From the sequence record DRR723986_14832: 50,275 nt of DNA, one strand, 5' to 3'. The notes beneath the pieces are model-generated. The model was not told the origin of the DNA. It worked only from the letters and a program-made list of their open reading frames with translations, and searched no databases. A program made the position numbers and the translations under genes. This document shows, piece after piece, positions 31,332-50,275 of the stretch; positions within the stretch are counted from its first letter, which is position 1, and each line of letters opens with the position of its first letter.

Positions 31332-31658
31332 TTACGCTAAAAGAGATTCACATTCCTCTATACAACTTCTGCAAGCCTCTGCGCATTGTCTACAACTGTC
31401 ATGTGTATGCTTTTCACACTCCCGGGCGCAATTATAACAAGCATCGGCACATTGCTGAAGATAAATAGCGGTATCGAGAGAACTTTTGTTTGTTGATGCA
31501 ATACAGTCTTTGCAGGCATCTATACATCGTTCGCAGTACTTGATACAATCTTGCATCCCAGGCCGATTACTACATGATTCAATACAGATAGTACAAGATT
31601 CTATACAGCTTTCAAATGTCACAATAGCATTGTTTTTAATCATCGTTACTGAGCTCAT
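31332..31658 (-). CDS. Four-helix-bundle copper-storage protein (Csp3/DUF326-like)
   Basis: 108 aa with 18 Cys in CxxxC/CxxC arrays, C.R.CEKH.H..C..CAEAC..C; no signal peptide. Confidence 0.9.
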   Translation of the reverse strand: MSSVTMIKNNAIVTFESCIESCTICIESCSNRPGMQDCIKYCERCIDACKDCIASTNKSSLDTAIYLQQCADACYNCARECEKHTHDSCRQCAEACRSCIEECESLLA

Positions 31659-39085: not shown

Positions 39086-41476
39086 ATGAACGAAAACATC
39101 ACTTCTCAGCATGAGCCAGAAATAGACAAAAGCAGGCTGATAGATGCTGTATTAGAAGAATTTCAGAAGTTCACAACGGGTGTAGCTGATCAAGTTGGCT
39201 CAGAAGAACTCTACACCTATCTATTCAAAAATGGAAGCAGCTTACTAGCACACTATTGCGAAGCGGGCGAAGCTTGGCTAGACTCTGTAGAAGATAATGT
39301 CGAAATCACAGATCCTGACCATTACCTAATTCACTTTTCTTATCCAGACAGGATCAAATCAAGTTTATTACTTGTGAGAGATGTGCTCCTTCAGCTCAGC
39401 ATAGCCCGGCTTCGGCATTCTGAAGGTTTAGTTTCGGAAGCTAAGATTCAAGAGCATTTTGAGGAGTCTCAAGCGCTGCTCACTACTGAATTAGAAAAAT
39501 ACCTACATTATTTCCAGCTTGAACGTAAAGCTATTTTGGGTAAACCTGAAGTACTCAGAAGAAAATTGGAATCAGTCAAACATTTCGCTAATCCTTGGAA
39601 AACATTCAATTCCCAATTTCAGACCATCTCTGGCCAATTTGATGAAATAAATCTTAATGATAGCAGGCTAAAGCAAACCATTGACCAATACAGTCTGATT
39701 CATGAGTTGATTCTACAAATGAGGACAGACGTTCTCAATAAAAATTCCCTCTTTGAGCAGAAGGCCCTTTCCAGCTTAGAAGACCTTACAAAAATCAGCG
39801 AAATTGAGCAACTCAACTCCACGTTAAAGTCTTTTGAGGATCTAATTAATTTAGGTGTTGGAATGGAAATCCGGTCGGAAAGCACCTTACGAAATCTGGA
39901 AGATTCAGTAAATAAACTTACATCGCTTTCCGTGCCTGTAGATTCTGAAGGTGGGTATCTAGTAGTGAAAAAAATAGATTTTAGAAAAACTTCAGAAAAA
40001 TGGCTTGACTACGAAATCCTTCCCTACCTCACTGATCTTTGGGATCTCCAAGAAGCTACTTTTTCTCCGCTGCTGAATATTGCTACGCAAATCAAAAGCA
40101 GTTTGCTTGTAGCGAAAAAAACACAACAGATTGCAAGTTTTGACGCTGAAATCAGCTCGTTAAATTCGATCACAGAACAACAAAAAAATGCTATCAAACA
40201 GAGTAAAGACCTTATCAAGCATATTGAAGATGTTCTTTCTCAAAGCTACAAAGTAACTGAGCTCTATACTTCAGAAGAATACCTTAAAGTCCCTTTTCAA
40301 ACTAATTTCTCCAGACTAAAATCAAGTAAACAAGGGAGCTTCCATTCTTATTGGCAGAAAATGGCTCATGTCTTCAAAAATCTAGGTAAGCAGGTGAAAG
40401 ATGCTAAGGAGAAATCACCACATCAACGCTTGGATATTGCCCTACAGATTCTTGAGACAAGAAATGAAAAGGAAACACCAGACCATTATCATTCTTTATT
40501 TCTAAACAAAAACTTTATCGGAGACCTATTTTTGGTTAGGCGAAGCGAGCAGGAAAAAGAAATTGAAAAAATTATAGGCTATTGGAAAAAAGGCCAAAAT
40601 AGGTCATTAGCAGTTTTAGGAGATCCTCTCTGCGGCAAATCAGCCATTTTGGAGTATATCACGCATCAATTCAAATCAAACGAAGTACATCATCTCACTC
40701 AAGGATCGGAAATCAGCATAGAAGGCAGAAAACTAAAGGTGGGAAAAAATTTGGAAGAGGTATTGAACTTTGTTAAAAGATCAGTTAGCAATTCCAAACC
40801 ACTTATAGTACTGGATGATTTGCATCTTTGGCGAGATTCAAGCTCTTCTTTACTCACAAATGCTGAAGCTCTAATTGATTTCATCAGCTCTATTTCTTCC
40901 AAAATATTCGTGGTAGTAGGGATGACAAATGCACTTCGGGTTCATTTAGATACCAGAATGAAATTCTCTCAAGGGTTTACTAATTTGTTGGATGTAAAAA
41001 CCTCCACCTCCGACGAAATTTATAAGGCAGTAATGCTGCGTCATGGTGCTTCTCATCGATCGATCTTTGAAAAGGATGGAGTTAAAATGAATGAAATCCA
41101 GCTTCAAAAGAAAATCGCCTGGCTTACCAAAAAATTTGATTTTAATATTGGCGCTGTATTGCAAGCGTGGATCTTTTGTACAGATGTTAAGGAAGATGGG
41201 TCAATTCGCTTTTCAGAAAAAGAGACACATCTCAATGATTTCTTAGCTATTGCTGAGCTTCTCATATTAAAAAATTGTTTGCTTTTTGGATATTCCAGTG
41301 ATTTGGAACTCAAAAACTTGTTTACCGACAGATACGAAAATGAGTACAAGCCTGCCGTAAGAAAACTGCTGAATATTGGCGTTTTGGACCGGGATGCCAA
41401 TGGGTACCTAATCGTAAAAAACACAGTGAGACAAGACCTTTATTCTATTTTGAAATACAGAGAATTACTCGCCTAA
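39086..41476 (+). CDS. Large protein: helical N-terminus + AAA+/P-loop ATPase + probable winged helix
   Basis: Walker A GDPLCGKS, Walker B LIVLDD, and C-terminal ..AVRKLLNIGVLDRDANGYLIV. Confidence 0.8.
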   Translation: MNENITSQHEPEIDKSRLIDAVLEEFQKFTTGVADQVGSEELYTYLFKNGSSLLAHYCEAGEAWLDSVEDNVEITDPDHYLIHFSYPDRIKSSLLLVRDVLLQLSIARLRHSEGLVSEAKIQEHFEESQALLTTELEKYLHYFQLERKAILGKPEVLRRKLESVKHFANPWKTFNSQFQTISGQFDEINLNDSRLKQTIDQYSLIHELILQMRTDVLNKNSLFEQKALSSLEDLTKISEIEQLNSTLKSFEDLINLGVGMEIRSESTLRNLEDSVNKLTSLSVPVDSEGGYLVVKKIDFRKTSEKWLDYEILPYLTDLWDLQEATFSPLLNIATQIKSSLLVAKKTQQIASFDAEISSLNSITEQQKNAIKQSKDLIKHIEDVLSQSYKVTELYTSEEYLKVPFQTNFSRLKSSKQGSFHSYWQKMAHVFKNLGKQVKDAKEKSPHQRLDIALQILETRNEKETPDHYHSLFLNKNFIGDLFLVRRSEQEKEIEKIIGYWKKGQNRSLAVLGDPLCGKSAILEYITHQFKSNEVHHLTQGSEISIEGRKLKVGKNLEEVLNFVKRSVSNSKPLIVLDDLHLWRDSSSSLLTNAEALIDFISSISSKIFVVVGMTNALRVHLDTRMKFSQGFTNLLDVKTSTSDEIYKAVMLRHGASHRSIFEKDGVKMNEIQLQKKIAWLTKKFDFNIGAVLQAWIFCTDVKEDGSIRFSEKETHLNDFLAIAELLILKNCLLFGYSSDLELKNLFTDRYENEYKPAVRKLLNIGVLDRDANGYLIVKNTVRQDLYSILKYRELLA

Positions 41477-41491
41477 TCAACCAATTTTACT

Positions 41492-42190
41492 ATGAATCAT
41501 TGGAATGATCTCCTTGTCTTAATTCTCATCGTATCAGCGATTTACCTAGCACTATCGCTATGTTTTTTCGGTCTTACCCGCTATGTCCGAAAAAGGAGGA
41601 TAAGTGAAAAATATTTAATTCTGATTAATAAATTTCGACTCTTTTATAAGCCAACGGCTTGGCTAGTAGTTATTGGTGGGTTTATAGCTTTAGACCCGGT
41701 TACACATGGTTTTATCATTTTGTTAGTCTTAGGTGTTGGCTACAAGCATCTTGGGAATTATATCAGCGGACTTTTCCTCAGATCTAGTCCCCTACTCGCT
41801 ATTCATACGCTGGTGAAAGCTGGGAAAATCCGTGGCAGAGTGAATAAAATCGGAAGCTTAGGAATGGTACTTGGAACCGATCAGGGTGAGCAATGGGTCT
41901 GGTTTAATTCCTTCGATCGAGCGGGTTTCACCTTGATTTCCAACCAAACAAATGAGCAACAACGCTCTCTTTATCTTAAATCCGAACATTCGAAGGAAAA
42001 GTTAGAGAACTTGATTTTCGATCATCCGATTTTAGCGCTGGGGAAGCCCTCCAATCTAAAATCGCTTAGTGCTGAGAACACGTACTTGCTGCACTATACT
42101 TTGGTGAAAGGTGCACAGCAAGAAGATCTCACCAACTACCTGAATGATCACGATATCCAAACTAATTCCACTGAAAAATTTAACTCCTAA
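41492..42190 (+). CDS. Divergent MscS-like membrane protein
   Basis: About three TM helices, LGNYISGLFL (MscS TM3-like), then GKIRGRVNKIG..LGTDQGEQ...NS (MscS beta domain-like). Confidence 0.65.
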   Translation: MNHWNDLLVLILIVSAIYLALSLCFFGLTRYVRKRRISEKYLILINKFRLFYKPTAWLVVIGGFIALDPVTHGFIILLVLGVGYKHLGNYISGLFLRSSPLLAIHTLVKAGKIRGRVNKIGSLGMVLGTDQGEQWVWFNSFDRAGFTLISNQTNEQQRSLYLKSEHSKEKLENLIFDHPILALGKPSNLKSLSAENTYLLHYTLVKGAQQEDLTNYLNDHDIQTNSTEKFNS

Positions 42191-43467
42191 TGGAACTTAT
42201 ATCCTCTTATAACTTGATCATTGAGTTTTCGGTGATAATTATTTTATCCTTTCTATTCAACGGTCTATCAAAGAAAACGAACATTCCTGCAGTGTTGATG
42301 CTGATCGCTCTGGGACTGATACTTCAATATATCCTCGGATATTTCACCACAGAAACTATCGATTTTTTCCCGATTTTGGAGGTTTTAGGAATCGTTGGCC
42401 TTATTATGATCGTATTGGAAGCAGCACTAGAGCTAGAACTCAAGCGTGAAAAGCTCATCCCTATATTAAAATCTCTGGCAATAGCATTGATCGGTCTGAT
42501 GCTCTCGACTTGGGCAGCAGCAAGTATTCTATATTATTACATTCCTGAGATGACCATGCAGTCCGCATGGCTTTATGCTACCCCACTTTCCATTCTTTCG
42601 AGTGCTATTATTATCCCAAGCGTGGCAGGGTTGAAAAGCAAAAAAAGGGAATTCCACATCTATGAAAGTACATTTTCAGACATTCTGGGAATTATGCTTT
42701 TCTACTTCCTCACCGGAAAATTAAATCCTGCTGAGGATTCTGGTTTGGTAGGTTTTGGAGGGAATTTCTTGTTGACTGTCGCTATTTCGTTGATAGCTAG
42801 CTATGCAATTATTTTGATTTTTCAGAAAATCAAAAGCAATGTGAAGCTTTTCCTGTTAATCGCTGTTTTGTTGCTTCTCTATGCATTAGGCAAAAAAATG
42901 CATCTTTCTTCTCTGATTATCATTCTGATTTTCGGGTTGGTGATCGCAAACATGAAGTTATTCTTCAAAGGCAAACTTTCCCGCTTATTGGACTATGCAA
43001 AAGCACATCAGATCTATCATGAATTGCACACAATCACTGCGGAAACAGCCTTTGTGGTTCGAACGCTTTTCTTTGTGATTTTTGGGTTAACTATTACCAT
43101 TACTTCACTTTTTGATCTACAAGTAGCCTTAATCAGCTGTCTCCTGATCGGCTCAATCTATGGAATTCGAATTGTTCTATTACTGATTTTTGAAGGCAAA
43201 GACATTATTCCTCAAGTATTCATTGCTCCTAGAGGATTGATCACTGTTTTGCTTTTCTACGGCATTCCTAAGGAAGCTCAAATCGATAGTTTCGAGCCAG
43301 GAATTTTACTTTTCGTCATCATCGGCACTAGCTTAATCATGACTTTTGCTATGATCTATGAAAAGAAAAGATCGTCGCAAGCAATTGATCAAGCGAATAG
43401 CAGAGCTGTGGGATCCGTAAAGTGGAAAGCACCTAGCGTACTCGAAAATTCGGACTCCAAATCTTAA
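42190..43467 (+). CDS. Cation:proton antiporter, CPA1/NhaP-like
   Basis: About 12-13 TM helices, SSAIIIP, ESTFSDILG and APRG; TAATG overlap with the upstream gene. Confidence 0.88.
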   Translation: MELISSYNLIIEFSVIIILSFLFNGLSKKTNIPAVLMLIALGLILQYILGYFTTETIDFFPILEVLGIVGLIMIVLEAALELELKREKLIPILKSLAIALIGLMLSTWAAASILYYYIPEMTMQSAWLYATPLSILSSAIIIPSVAGLKSKKREFHIYESTFSDILGIMLFYFLTGKLNPAEDSGLVGFGGNFLLTVAISLIASYAIILIFQKIKSNVKLFLLIAVLLLLYALGKKMHLSSLIIILIFGLVIANMKLFFKGKLSRLLDYAKAHQIYHELHTITAETAFVVRTLFFVIFGLTITITSLFDLQVALISCLLIGSIYGIRIVLLLIFEGKDIIPQVFIAPRGLITVLLFYGIPKEAQIDSFEPGILLFVIIGTSLIMTFAMIYEKKRSSQAIDQANSRAVGSVKWKAPSVLENSDSKS

Positions 43468-46813: not shown

Positions 46814-47776
46814 CTACCACATTACCACCTGCTGAGAATCAGTTCTTACATTATCTCTGAAAAGGTTGAATATTGCCGTGAACTCATGTGTATTACCTGG
46901 GAGATTATATCTTCCTCCAGTAGGAAATTCATATACATAGCCAATTCGGAGTCTGTTGGTCACTACTCCCAACTGGGCGTTTGTTGCATAGTCTATTCTA
47001 TGACCAATCCCAAGCCAAACCCTATCCATCATCAGTGCTTTGATGTTAAATTCAATATTGTCATCCTGGTTCTTTTGGATACTGTACATCCCGTTTACAA
47101 TCACAGCCAAATTATCACCCACCGCACTTCGGTAGCCAGCCTGAAAAATTGAACTCGCCGGATAAGCATCCATAAATTCATCCCCAGAGGTGATCTTACC
47201 GCCATTCACACGACGAATTCCGTAGGACAGATAATAATTAGCATGTGTCAATGCAATACCCAGATTGAAGTCAATCACGTTCATATTCGAAAACTGGCCA
47301 ACATACTGACCAAGTGTCGCGTCATTCTGCTCCTCAGTTGTAAGCGCATTTCCATCCAATCGTATACTTTGATAATTTAACCCTGCTCCCAGTCTCAAAT
47401 TGTGAGTCTCTGAAAGTCTTATTCTACTTGCATATCCTAGCGTTAATTCGGTTTCCCTAAAAGCACCATAAGTGTCATATAGTAAATTTACAGAAACTGC
47501 ATTTTTCCCCATCAAAGCAGGATCCTCTTTCCCTGACAATTCCCCAAAGTCCAACTCGGTGCTGAAAAAATAAGTTTTCGGGGCTCCTTCGACTCCTGAC
47601 CACTGATTTCTCACAAAGCCTCTTACAGTCGAACCTTCGTAGCCCGTCAATCCCGGATTGTAGTAACTCTGGAATAAATTGAAGCTCGAAACATATTTAC
47701 GGGACTGAGCCTGGACCTCAGACAGTCCTACTATCATCAGAAAAAATGCCGCTGCGATGTATTTTAATTCCTTCAT
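46814..47776 (-). CDS. T9SS membrane protein, PorP/SprF family
   Basis: YYNPGLTG..RNQWSGVEGAPKT, IGYVYE and THEF; lies downstream of a type-B CTD gene. Confidence 0.93.
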   Translation of the reverse strand: MKELKYIAAAFFLMIVGLSEVQAQSRKYVSSFNLFQSYYNPGLTGYEGSTVRGFVRNQWSGVEGAPKTYFFSTELDFGELSGKEDPALMGKNAVSVNLLYDTYGAFRETELTLGYASRIRLSETHNLRLGAGLNYQSIRLDGNALTTEEQNDATLGQYVGQFSNMNVIDFNLGIALTHANYYLSYGIRRVNGGKITSGDEFMDAYPASSIFQAGYRSAVGDNLAVIVNGMYSIQKNQDDNIEFNIKALMMDRVWLGIGHRIDYATNAQLGVVTNRLRIGYVYEFPTGGRYNLPGNTHEFTAIFNLFRDNVRTDSQQVVMW

Positions 47777-47889: not shown

Positions 47890-50274
47890 CTATTGCCTAA
47901 GCAGATTCAGCATACCTCTCCGTATTTCACCTGTTTCACCTACTTCGATCACATATAGGTAAGCTCCGACTGGCATTTCTTTGCCATTGAATATGCCATC
48001 CCACTGTACATCAGGATTCTCTGTATAGAAGACTCGATCTCCTCCCACACTCAAAATCGATATTCGTACGCCTGTATAGTAGCGCAACGCCAGCACACCC
48101 CATGTATCGTTAACACCATCTCCATTCGGCGTGAAGGTGTTTGGCACATCCAATTGGTTAAGCGGAGTTCGCTGTCTGGTTATCTGGAAACTCTTCTCAA
48201 GCACATTTCCTGCTCGGTCAGTCACCTGAAGCAGGATGGTGAATTCGGTTCTGCCTCCTGCCTGCTCAGCACTACTCCAGAAAAGGATACCATCGAGAAC
48301 TTCAAAGAAATCATTGTCCTGAACGCCTTCTGGCAGACTGAACATATGAACGTTATCAGTAGGGTCAATTACCGTGAAGGCTCCAATTTCCTGGAAGTAC
48401 TGATCAGGAGTTCCTATGAAACTATTTGCACTTAAGGATACATCCTGTGGTGCCGACTTGGCCAATACTGTGATTTCCAGAATTGGCTTAAGCTCATCCG
48501 GATTGAACAATCCTTCAGGAAGTTCTACCGTACCCATATAGTTTGTTGTTCCTGAAACTAACGGATCATAACCTGTAAGATCCCATGTTACTGGAAGATT
48601 GATAAATTCACCTTTGCTGGTGATCACTACTACATCTGTTGGTACTTTAAGATCTCCACTTTCAGTTCCCCAAAGTACTTCCAAGCTTTCGTTTACAAAC
48701 TCAGTGACAGATCTTTCCTGCACATAATCAGGATTTCCATCTCCGTCTTCATCTTCGAAGTCAGTACCATCTTCAGGATCTGAGCCTTGTTGCTCTTCCA
48801 CATAATCTGGAACCATATCAACATCAGAATCCAAGTAATCACCTGCATCATCAGGATCAGTTCCCTCTTGCTCTTCCACATAGTCTGGAACTCCGTCACC
48901 GTCAGTATCCAAATAATCCATTGTGTCTTCAGAATCGGTGCCTTGCTCTTCCTCTATATCATCCGGAACACCATCACCATCTGTGTCATTACTTATGATT
49001 TCGAAATCAGCTCCTGTAAAGTCTATGGTATAATTAGAACCAGCGTCTAAAGTCCCGATATTAATCGCATAGGTTCCTATACCCTCCCCAAGTTCTCTGG
49101 ATAAGGTTCCTGTTAATATATTTTCATCATCTCCAACTCCAAATCCAGAAGCAGAAAAAGTCAATACCGGATCAGCTTCTCCATACAACTTATTCTGATC
49201 TGCATCGGCTATCACTTCCAGAATCGCTTTGGTGATTTCTAAATCTGCAGTAAGCTCAAAGGATGTGAAATTACTTCCAGAAATAGTTGCGGTAACTTCT
49301 TGAAGGCCTACATCGGTTCTGCTATTATTAGTATAAGCTACAGATGCTCCAAGTGGTAAAGCTCCTGTAATCGCCAACGACTTAGCTGTACCGTCATAAA
49401 CAAATGAGTTATCTTCAAAGCTAATTCCTATTATAGACGCTGGAGTAATTGTGAGATCTGCCATTAAGACTAGGTTTATGTAATTGGAACCACTTATGGT
49501 AGCAGTTACTTCCTGCATTCCAACATCCGTCCTAGAATTATTAGCATAAGCTACAGATGTACCTGTTGGAAGCGTTCCTGAAATTGCCAAGGATTTAGCT
49601 GTACCGTCATAAACAAAGCTTCCATCTGCCAGTGTAATGCCAGTGATTAGTGCTTTGGTTATCGCAAAGTTTGCTCCGACGTAATTGATGGCATAGTTAG
49701 CACCAGCATTCAATGTTCCAAGGCTTATTGCATAGCTACCAACGTTTTCTCCTGCTGCTCTAGCAAGTTCCCCTGTCAGAATAGCGTTAGTATCTCCATT
49801 CTCAAATCCATTCACTGAATAGGTAAATACAGGGTCAGTCGTTCCAAATACCTTACTTTGTCCTGCATCAGCAGTAATATTCAATACTTTAGCAGCAATC
49901 TCAAAGTCAGCTGAAGTAAAGCTGATCGTATAGTTTCCTCCGGCACTTAGACTGCCCAAATTGATTGGATACATTCCTATATTCTCACCAGGAGTTCTAC
50001 TTAATGTACCGGTTAGGAATGCATGGGTATCGCCGTTGCCAAAATTGCTTGCCATGAAAGTCAATACTGGATCAGGCTGTCCATAGACTTTCGCTTGGTT
50101 TGGATTTGCAGTAATAAACAAGGTACGCTTGGTGATCTCAAAATCAGCCGAATTAAAGTTAATCGTATAGTTACCACCCGCATCGATAGTTCCTGGCTGT
50201 ATAGCGTAAAAACCTACGTCTTCTCCAGCTATTCTGATCAGTAACCCAGTAAGGATCGCACCAGTATCACCATT
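47890..50274 (-). CDS. Large T9SS type-B CTD surface protein with MBG repeats and Ca-binding DxDGDG repeats (5' end outside window)
   Basis: Frame is open to the window edge; repeated 'K.YG..DP.LT..GTL.R..GE.G.Y.I..G.L.AG.NY.I.F.ADFEI'; C-terminal VPNTFTPNGDGVNDTW..WDG..G.Y.Y. Confidence 0.93.
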   Translation of the reverse strand, partial: NGDTGAILTGLLIRIAGEDVGFYAIQPGTIDAGGNYTINFNSADFEITKRTLFITANPNQAKVYGQPDPVLTFMASNFGNGDTHAFLTGTLSRTPGENIGMYPINLGSLSAGGNYTISFTSADFEIAAKVLNITADAGQSKVFGTTDPVFTYSVNGFENGDTNAILTGELARAAGENVGSYAISLGTLNAGANYAINYVGANFAITKALITGITLADGSFVYDGTAKSLAISGTLPTGTSVAYANNSRTDVGMQEVTATISGSNYINLVLMADLTITPASIIGISFEDNSFVYDGTAKSLAITGALPLGASVAYTNNSRTDVGLQEVTATISGSNFTSFELTADLEITKAILEVIADADQNKLYGEADPVLTFSASGFGVGDDENILTGTLSRELGEGIGTYAINIGTLDAGSNYTIDFTGADFEIISNDTDGDGVPDDIEEEQGTDSEDTMDYLDTDGDGVPDYVEEQEGTDPDDAGDYLDSDVDMVPDYVEEQQGSDPEDGTDFEDEDGDGNPDYVQERSVTEFVNESLEVLWGTESGDLKVPTDVVVITSKGEFINLPVTWDLTGYDPLVSGTTNYMGTVELPEGLFNPDELKPILEITVLAKSAPQDVSLSANSFIGTPDQYFQEIGAFTVIDPTDNVHMFSLPEGVQDNDFFEVLDGILFWSSAEQAGGRTEFTILLQVTDRAGNVLEKSFQITRQRTPLNQLDVPNTFTPNGDGVNDTWGVLALRYYTGVRISILSVGGDRVFYTENPDVQWDGIFNGKEMPVGAYLYVIEVGETGEIRRGMLNLLRQ
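48718..48987 (-). repeat. About 3.5 copies of a 26-aa (78-nt) acidic DxDGDGVPD repeat
   Basis: DTDGDGVPDDIEEEQGTD / DTDGDGVPDYVEEQEGTD / DSDVDMVPDYVEEQQGSD / DEDGDGNPDYVQ. Confidence 0.85.
49223..49648 (-). repeat. Tandem 213-nt (71-aa) domain duplication
   Basis: Identical TTAGCTGTACCGTCATAAACAAA at 49382 and 49595; SFVYDGTAKSLAI..NNSRTDVG.QEVTATISGSN occurs twice. Confidence 0.9.
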
Positions 50275-50275
50275 C

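Follow-up and report, generated by a model that had tools for sequence, protein, structure and literature searches.

What does an ATPase do in one operon with an MscS-like membrane protein and a cation/proton antiporter (CPA)? The question is raised by the three genes at positions 39086..43467 of DRR723986_14832, a stretch of 50,275 nucleotides that is called the window below. To our knowledge, no MscS protein with a dedicated ATPase is known. Gene A (39086..41476, + strand) encodes a protein of 796 amino acids, predicted to consist of a helical arm, a Cdc6/STAND-like P-loop nucleoside triphosphatase (NTPase) and a winged helix. Gene B (41492..42190, +, 232 aa) encodes a putative, degenerate MscS-fold membrane protein with three helices, a beta domain and a ferredoxin-like C-terminal domain, and gene C (42190..43467, +, 425 aa) encodes a predicted CPA1-type cation/proton antiporter of a distinct subfamily, without an RCK domain. 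A and B are separated by 15 nt, and the stop codon of B and the start codon of C overlap in a TAATG at 42188-42192; the co-orientation, gap and overlap given in a preliminary description of the locus were all confirmed from the open reading frame (ORF) coordinates. In comparison with an orthologue of 94% identity, all three genes are under purifying selection (dN/dS 0.084 for A, 0.066 for B and 0.021 for C). The three genes are real and form a coupled unit. The closest named record is that of Algoriphagus winogradskyi, with 99% protein identity, and the G+C content of the operon (38.5%, as compared with 40.3% for the window) gives no sign of a recent foreign origin. A promoter scan gave 13 sites, as compared with 15.2 expected.

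Conservation of the Gene Order

A GTDB scan yielded 78 loci. The order A, B, C was complete at 75 of them, with gaps of -17 to 15 nt, and the remaining three run off contig edges; the co-location in other genomes on which the preliminary description had staked its reading was therefore observed. Besides Algoriphagus, the triad is carried by Flavobacteriaceae, Marinifilaceae and further Cyclobacteriaceae, with different flanks. At distant loci the identity of A and B falls to 20-33% while that of C is still 60-79%, and the order is kept. In a second, distant subgroup of 60 metagenome loci, some of them near-duplicates, B follows A at 55 of the 57 testable loci and C is present at 43 of 44. Chance juxtaposition of A, B and C, considered as a candidate explanation, is ruled out by the order at the 75 of 78 loci and in the distant subgroup. 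A few loci depart from the pattern. Two contigs of metagenome-assembled genomes (L034 and L061) have A as two separate ORFs; at L258 (7433-8967) the B gene ends after about 114 codons in unrelated amino-acid ABC transporter DNA, and this contig is probably chimeric; at L255 an unrelated ORF of 204 aa follows A, close to the contig end.

A is carried by 23 of 84 genomes of the genus, and the triad is thus an accessory module. Among 401 genomes, strong matches to B (E <= 1e-20) occurred in five, each straight after an ATPase gene, although independence from the seeds holds for one of these genomes only (G244), and the shortened B of two triads escaped the search. The subfamily of C is found in 41 of the 401 genomes; five of the seven members of the closest clade lie in triads, and three of the other 34 members stand divergently beside an ATPase-MscS pair.

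The ATPase-MscS Pair as the Fixed Core

A broader NTPase profile gave 84 matches in 83 of the 401 Bacteroidota genomes, 48 of which belong to one family. Five of these matches are triads; among the 79 others, we examined five seeds and 54 more. An MscS-like gene follows each of the five seed ATPases, and a co-oriented MscS-like neighbour was found by script at 52 of the 54 loci and at L216 on inspection, giving 53 of 54. Four classes could be distinguished. In class a the ATPase stands alone, has about 430 or 800-1500 aa and is accompanied by a canonical MscS. In class b the ATPase is fused to a cation-chloride cotransporter (CCC; L018, L140, L196 and L207), and the two are split at L136. The ATPases of class c, about 1500 aa long and encoded beside TrkH and TrkA, carry a CPA2-like PF00999 domain at the N-terminus in four of five tested (one just under the cut-off). 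The triad is class d. Classes a, b and c have homologous helical regions (hhalign 97.6-99.7%), and the last ~200 residues of the triad arm match the region preceding the ATPase in the ~1000-aa, MscS-linked members of class a (80%, E 1.4e-5); the match of the triad arm to class b is weak (11%, E 0.003). The 430-aa members of class a suggest that it is the NTPase-winged-helix end through which the ATPase cooperates with MscS.

These data show that the ATPase-MscS pair is the fixed core and that the transporter is exchangeable; since many pairs have no neighbouring transporter, C is not a fixed part. The ion/osmotic character proposed for the three genes in the preliminary description is supported by the fusions of the ATPase family to two other transporters, and the fixed pair with its exchangeable transporter is a refinement of that proposal.

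The fusion of the ATPase family to two unrelated transporters is our main ground for expecting physical coupling. The reading that we prefer is that A and B form a nucleotide-switched regulatory unit controlling the ion transporter C in trans, with B as tension sensor and C as an electroneutral exchanger. We judge the chances of this reading to be about even. B would be an MscS-like membrane oligomer, poorly conducting or non-conducting, serving as sensor of tension or turgor and as docking site. A would dock on the cytoplasmic cage of B through its NTPase-winged-helix end and toggle between ADP and ATP states in the manner of Cdc6/STAND proteins, and its helical arm could relay the nucleotide state to C. 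C, as an electroneutral CPA1 antiporter that probably prefers K+, would then tune cation efflux and pH to changes in salinity or turgor. A more general form of the idea, which we put forward with somewhat less assurance, is that of a modular tension-sensing unit, in which an MscS-fold oligomer that releases no solute recruits a Cdc6/STAND-like ATPase whose arm turns secondary ion transporters on and off, CPA1 in the triad and CCC or CPA2 in the fused forms.

Several variants of the pair were observed. The ATPases at L197-L201 have 413-437 aa and lack most of the helical arm, and a canonical MscS gene follows directly. The MscS gene lies upstream of the ATPase gene at L214, L216 and L218-L221. 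At L217, an ATPase of 1540 aa follows an ORF of 1690 aa, without Pfam matches in the parts scanned. At L209 (3657-12853, +), L210-L213 and L233, a hydrophobic protein of 414 aa (no Pfam match), a fusion of CPA2 and ATPase (~1495 aa), an MscS-like protein, TrkH and TrkA are encoded in one operon.

Gene A: a Predicted Nucleotide-Binding Switch

In the AlphaFold model of A (pLDDT 81.7, pTM 0.48), the arm (about residues 13-462; 39122..40471, +) has helices over residues ~16-462 with a single beta-hairpin at 280-298, and is followed by the NTPase and by a C-terminal winged helix (about residues 720-796; 41243..41473, +). The helical nature described earlier for this part of A thus held, but its length is about 460 rather than about 480 residues. 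No transmembrane (TM) segment had been seen in the helical region, in agreement with our finding that the lone marginal hydrophobic window of A (595-613, score 1.72) falls inside the NTPase fold. The Walker A motif GDPLCGKS (residues 512-519; 40619..40642, +) and the Walker B motif LIVLDD (residues 573-578; 40802..40819, +) were located as well, as had been reported together with the winged-helix-like end. Pfam gave AAA-type matches to A only below cut-off (best AAA_16, E 1.7e-5), and NCBIfam assigned no family, every model match scoring under its cut-off.

A profile search with A returned 856 representatives at E <= 0.001, and motifs were counted in the 140 of at least 650 aa among the 150 matches listed. 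The Walker A Lys position is Lys in 129 and Arg in 11 of these 140; in Walker B, D577 is kept in 137, and position 578 is Asp in 123 and Asn in 17. R652 is invariant. A GxP motif in the lid is a feature of STAND proteins; the lid motif of the window's A is FNIG, and among the 140 relatives, 90 have G686 and 131 have N687, without Pro, and two distant members have GTP or GNP.

Foldseek and VIA-align matched the C-terminal part of A to RuvB, Cdc6/Orc1, NSF, clamp loaders, Avs5 and archaeal ATPases. Residues 468-778 aligned with Cdc6/Orc1 2qby (Z 12.5, root-mean-square deviation (rmsd) 8.0, 285 residues aligned). For Avs5, a defence protein of the STAND type, Z was 12.2 and rmsd 4.7 over 217 residues, and there were matches to plant NLRs; as these matches are tied, no AAA+/STAND subfamily is singled out. 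The helical arm matched only designed bundles, in a search made with the whole of A. A has the P-loop NTPase, helical domain and winged helix with Walker A and B of the STAND layout, and a C-terminal repeat sensor of the STAND type is absent, the winged helix being the protein end in the model. Judged from motifs and model, A is most aptly seen as a nucleotide-binding switch, intact and of Cdc6/STAND layout; for STAND proteins, a model has been described in which the switch lies between ADP and ATP states (PMC7583971). With Cdc6/Orc1, the archaeal ATPases 2qen and 2fna and STAND proteins such as Avs5 and NLRs, A shares the NTPase, the helical lid and the winged helix, and its STAND-like motifs comprise Walker A and B, the Arg of a 'GRE'-type motif and a possible GNIG/GxP-type motif. 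It differs from them in its 460-residue arm, the lack of C-terminal repeats and its linkage to membrane transport genes.

The winged helix raises the alternative that A is a MalT-like transcription regulator that B or C tethers to the membrane and that binds DNA through this domain. The fold of A does match DNA-binding Cdc6/Orc1, the basic residues 760 and 769 of the winged helix are conserved, and the mean net charge of this domain is +3.9 over 132 representatives; however, it is only +1 in the window's A and near neutral or acidic in most other classes. Furthermore, the upstream regions of 29 loci have no palindrome or 8-mer in common beyond the level of shuffled sequences. The winged helix belongs to the STAND nucleotide-binding unit anyway (PMC7583971). 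We therefore regard a regulator of transcription as improbable, and retain the view of A as a switch acting on C.

Gene B: an MscS Fold with an Eroded Pore Helix

Whether the middle ORF has an MscS fold at all was a point on which the preliminary description could have failed. PF00924 matched 15 of 19 close homologues of B, all under cut-off; a profile of 47 B sequences matched YbiO with E 2.9e-4, and the B profile matched canonical MscS with an hhalign probability of 95%. Foldseek with the low-confidence model of B (pLDDT 58) gave 43 matches at E <= 0.001 (best 6.5e-7), all of the MscS family among the matches listed. These results indicate that the MscS fold is present. B resembles EcMscS, YbiO, YnaI and AtMSL1 in its three helices, beta domain and alpha/beta domain, but differs from the family by a short TM2-TM3 stretch, a bulky TM3a, a near-absent [IV]PN motif, the lack of PFxVGD and an ATPase gene always upstream.

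Between TM2 and TM3, B is 8 residues shorter than canonical partners. In the 22 residues that precede the TM3b Asn, Gly, Ala and Ser together make up 0.17 of the sequence in 76 triad B proteins, as compared with 0.38 in 28 canonical partners; all three classes linked to a transporter have such low shares ahead of the TM3 kink (0.17, 0.20 and 0.15), in contrast to 0.38 in class a. The [IV]PN motif is found in 1 of 76 triad B proteins and 1 of 53 B proteins of the distant subgroup, in contrast to 26 of 28 canonical partners, and PFxVGD in none of 76 as compared with 24 of 28. In PMC3386975, TM3a is described as rich in glycine and alanine, and the PN motif as essential in MSL2. On sequence grounds, B is degenerate, having lost the Gly/Ala-rich pore helix TM3a and the PN motif; a sensor role or an anchoring role is more likely for it than release of solutes through an ordinary channel.

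B also varies in length. At L015 (7172-7729, -) and L016 it has only 185-187 aa, about 25 beta-domain residues being gone, and A of the same two loci has Arg in place of the Walker A Lys; the triad order is intact. At L256, L261 and L274, B is lengthened to 325-329 aa by about 90 additional N-terminal residues, which resemble a signal peptide and a periplasmic stretch. Bacteria keep many MscS paralogues. The nearest genome (G001), which we used for host-genome comparisons, has nine other MscS genes and six other CPA genes, and B and C are therefore extra paralogues.

Gene C: a CPA1-Type Antiporter with Unusual Motifs

C matches PF00999 with E 7e-22 and has 12 hydrophobic segments; Pfam finds no RCK/TrkA domain, and the earlier statement that C has no C-terminal RCK thus stands. 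Motif positions were read from an alignment with 15 other CPAs of three host genomes, against PMC6181914. The unwound TM4 motif I135-L-S-S-A (42592..42606, +) has no Asp at motif position 3 and has Ser at position 4; E159-S-T-F-S163-D164 (42664..42681, +) provides positions 5, 6 and 7, and R327 (43168..43170, +) is position 8 and the predicted partner of E159. E159, D164 and R327 are invariant in 22 of 22 orthologues, and a PRG motif is present. According to PMC6181914, CPA1 is defined by Glu at position 5 and Arg at position 8, and CPA1 members are called electroneutral. With E159 and R327 at these positions, C belongs to CPA1. The ESTFSD sequence noted earlier does lie at residue 159, but its deviation from ND is not the mark that was supposed, since membership rests on positions 5 and 8.

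In place of the P-T-D-P or S-T-D-A in TM4 and the Asn at position 6 that mark NhaP-I/NHE or NhaP-II, C has I-L-S-S and S163, and by these motifs it is a member of neither NhaP-I nor NhaP-II. Nor does it qualify as a Kef-type CPA2, as position 5 is Glu and no RCK match was found; the TM4 serines alone are Kef-like. In PMC6181914, Ser or Thr at position 1 or 4 is linked to K+ selectivity and Kef has L-S-S-T, which the TM4 of C resembles; by extrapolation from Kef, the Asp-free TM4 hints at a K+ preference of C. With CPA1 members (NhaP/NHE), C shares PF00999, E5, D7, R8 and PRG, and it differs by Ser for Asn at position 6 and by the missing TM4 Asp. The C subfamily forms a clade of its own, apart from the other CPAs of the three host genomes (SH-aLRT 99, in a quick tree), and PDB sequence and profile searches with C gave no match.

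Sensor or Channel

The preferred reading has to be weighed against a simpler one, in which B is a real small-conductance channel that A gates, assembles or removes, and C is merely co-expressed for salt or pH stress, without contact. The observations that weigh against our reading are in part the same that favor this channel. The pair is the constant element, and class a, with its canonical MscS, mostly has no adjacent transporter. Two of the seven members of the closest C clade stand alone, in genomes without an ATPase match, and 31 of the 34 other members of the subfamily have no ATPase gene nearby; in the triad class A and B nearly always accompany C, but C does not depend on them. Loss of pore motifs is no proof of lost conduction in B: conduction has been described for a miniature MscS (PMC12334622) and for MSL10, whose pore is rich in Phe and which has a non-conducting function besides (PMC6261518). 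Further points also weigh against our reading. Position 580 of A is His in the window and Glu in 122 of 140 relatives. Records titled Algoriphagus account for 24 of the 78 loci, so that the locus count overstates independence. The clustering of the triad with the CCC-fused class, which speaks for our reading, has SH-like approximate likelihood ratio test (SH-aLRT) values of 99 in the ATPase tree and 87 in the MscS tree, but these are quick trees with long branches.

Against a mere channel stand the fusion of the ATPase family to two unrelated transporter families, the erosion of the pore helix, which follows transporter linkage, and the B protein of L015, which is short of part of its beta domain and still encoded between A and C. 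We consider the channel explanation unlikely, though a serious competitor to control of C by A and B.

Relation to Known Systems

K+ transport by KefC/KefB and KtrAB/TrkAH is under nucleotide-binding RCK regulators. A cytoplasmic nucleotide-binding module as regulator of a cation transporter is also what we propose for A; in contrast to the Kef, Ktr and Trk systems, no RCK is present here, and the putative regulator is a P-loop NTPase with an MscS-fold partner. A further parallel is provided by the prokaryotic CCC/SLC12-ATPase fusions, the sister group in both trees, which have a homologous NTPase-winged helix and a degenerate MscS partner as in the triad. In the triad, however, A is a separate protein, its arm has about 460 rather than 604-645 residues, and the transporter is a downstream CPA1.

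A literature search, which included few subscription papers and no supplements, found no description of an ATPase-MscS unit with exchangeable ion transporters. At the level of gene architecture, the module appears to be new in kind; each of its folds is known, and its function is inferred. The unit looks like an undescribed tie of membrane tension to ion export in many Bacteroidota. If the more general form of the idea is true, MscS proteins would have a role other than conduction, and bacteria a counterpart of volume-regulated cotransport. The operon consists of three small, separable genes and poses two questions, namely, whether an MscS-fold protein can sense for an ATPase and whether the ATPase regulates an ion exchanger; this unfused form is simpler to dissect than fusions of 1500-1700 residues. 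The motif mix of C, with a CPA1 Glu/Arg pair, a Kef-like TM4 and SD for ND, also tests published ion-selectivity rules.

Genomic Neighborhood

The neighborhood was examined within 10 kb around the 78 loci. A stand-alone CCC gene lies near the triad at five of them and an Ion_trans channel gene after C at four; at L097, C is faced by the gene for a CPA-Ion_trans fusion, and 14 loci have additional MscS genes. These recurrent neighbors, together with TrkH and TrkA genes, bear on another explanation, an anti-phage system in which A would sense infection and oligomerise, and would open B or activate C so that the cell is depolarised. The fold matches to Avs5 and plant NLRs and the patchy occurrence in the genus would suit such a system, but the neighbors point to ion transport. 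PADLOC gave no match for A, B or C, and only seven of 119 neighbor types (from 294 slots) matched at 1e-10, each over part of the model; these are probably generic enzyme domains. In addition, A lacks repeats of the sensor type at its C-terminus, conservation of C is high, and no match was found for A in a plasmid collection or for its ATPase part in a phage collection. The defence role entertained in the preliminary description thus found no support, and we consider it very improbable, even more so than a regulator of transcription; the regulatory unit acting on ion transport remains our preference.

At L094 (7030-14256, +), from Ulvibacter antarcticus, a B-like ORF of 159 aa and a CCC gene (730 aa) precede the triad, the CCC gene ending 15 nt upstream of A, and B and C follow; this arrangement may stand midway between the fused and the unfused organisation. 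The fusion at L097 (12097-14508, -) is a protein of 803 aa that combines a CPA of the C subfamily with a zinc-ribbon-bearing Ion_trans channel domain; it is encoded convergently and directly after the triad. Two unannotated ORF families without a Pfam match occur near Flavobacteriaceae triads, one of 233 aa at 10 loci (e.g., L047:14465-15166) and one of 147 aa at six (e.g., L055:6030-6473).

In the window itself, the operon is flanked by a thioredoxin-like gene on one side and a GH95 gene on the other. A predicted large surface protein, which has repeats and acidic DxDGDG motifs, is encoded at 47890-50275 (-). The gene after it (46814-47776, -) encodes 320 aa, and the two may be a type-B substrate of the type IX secretion system and its PorP/SprF partner. 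A cysteine-rich protein of 108 aa, encoded at 31332-31658 (-), resembles the four-helix copper-binding proteins.

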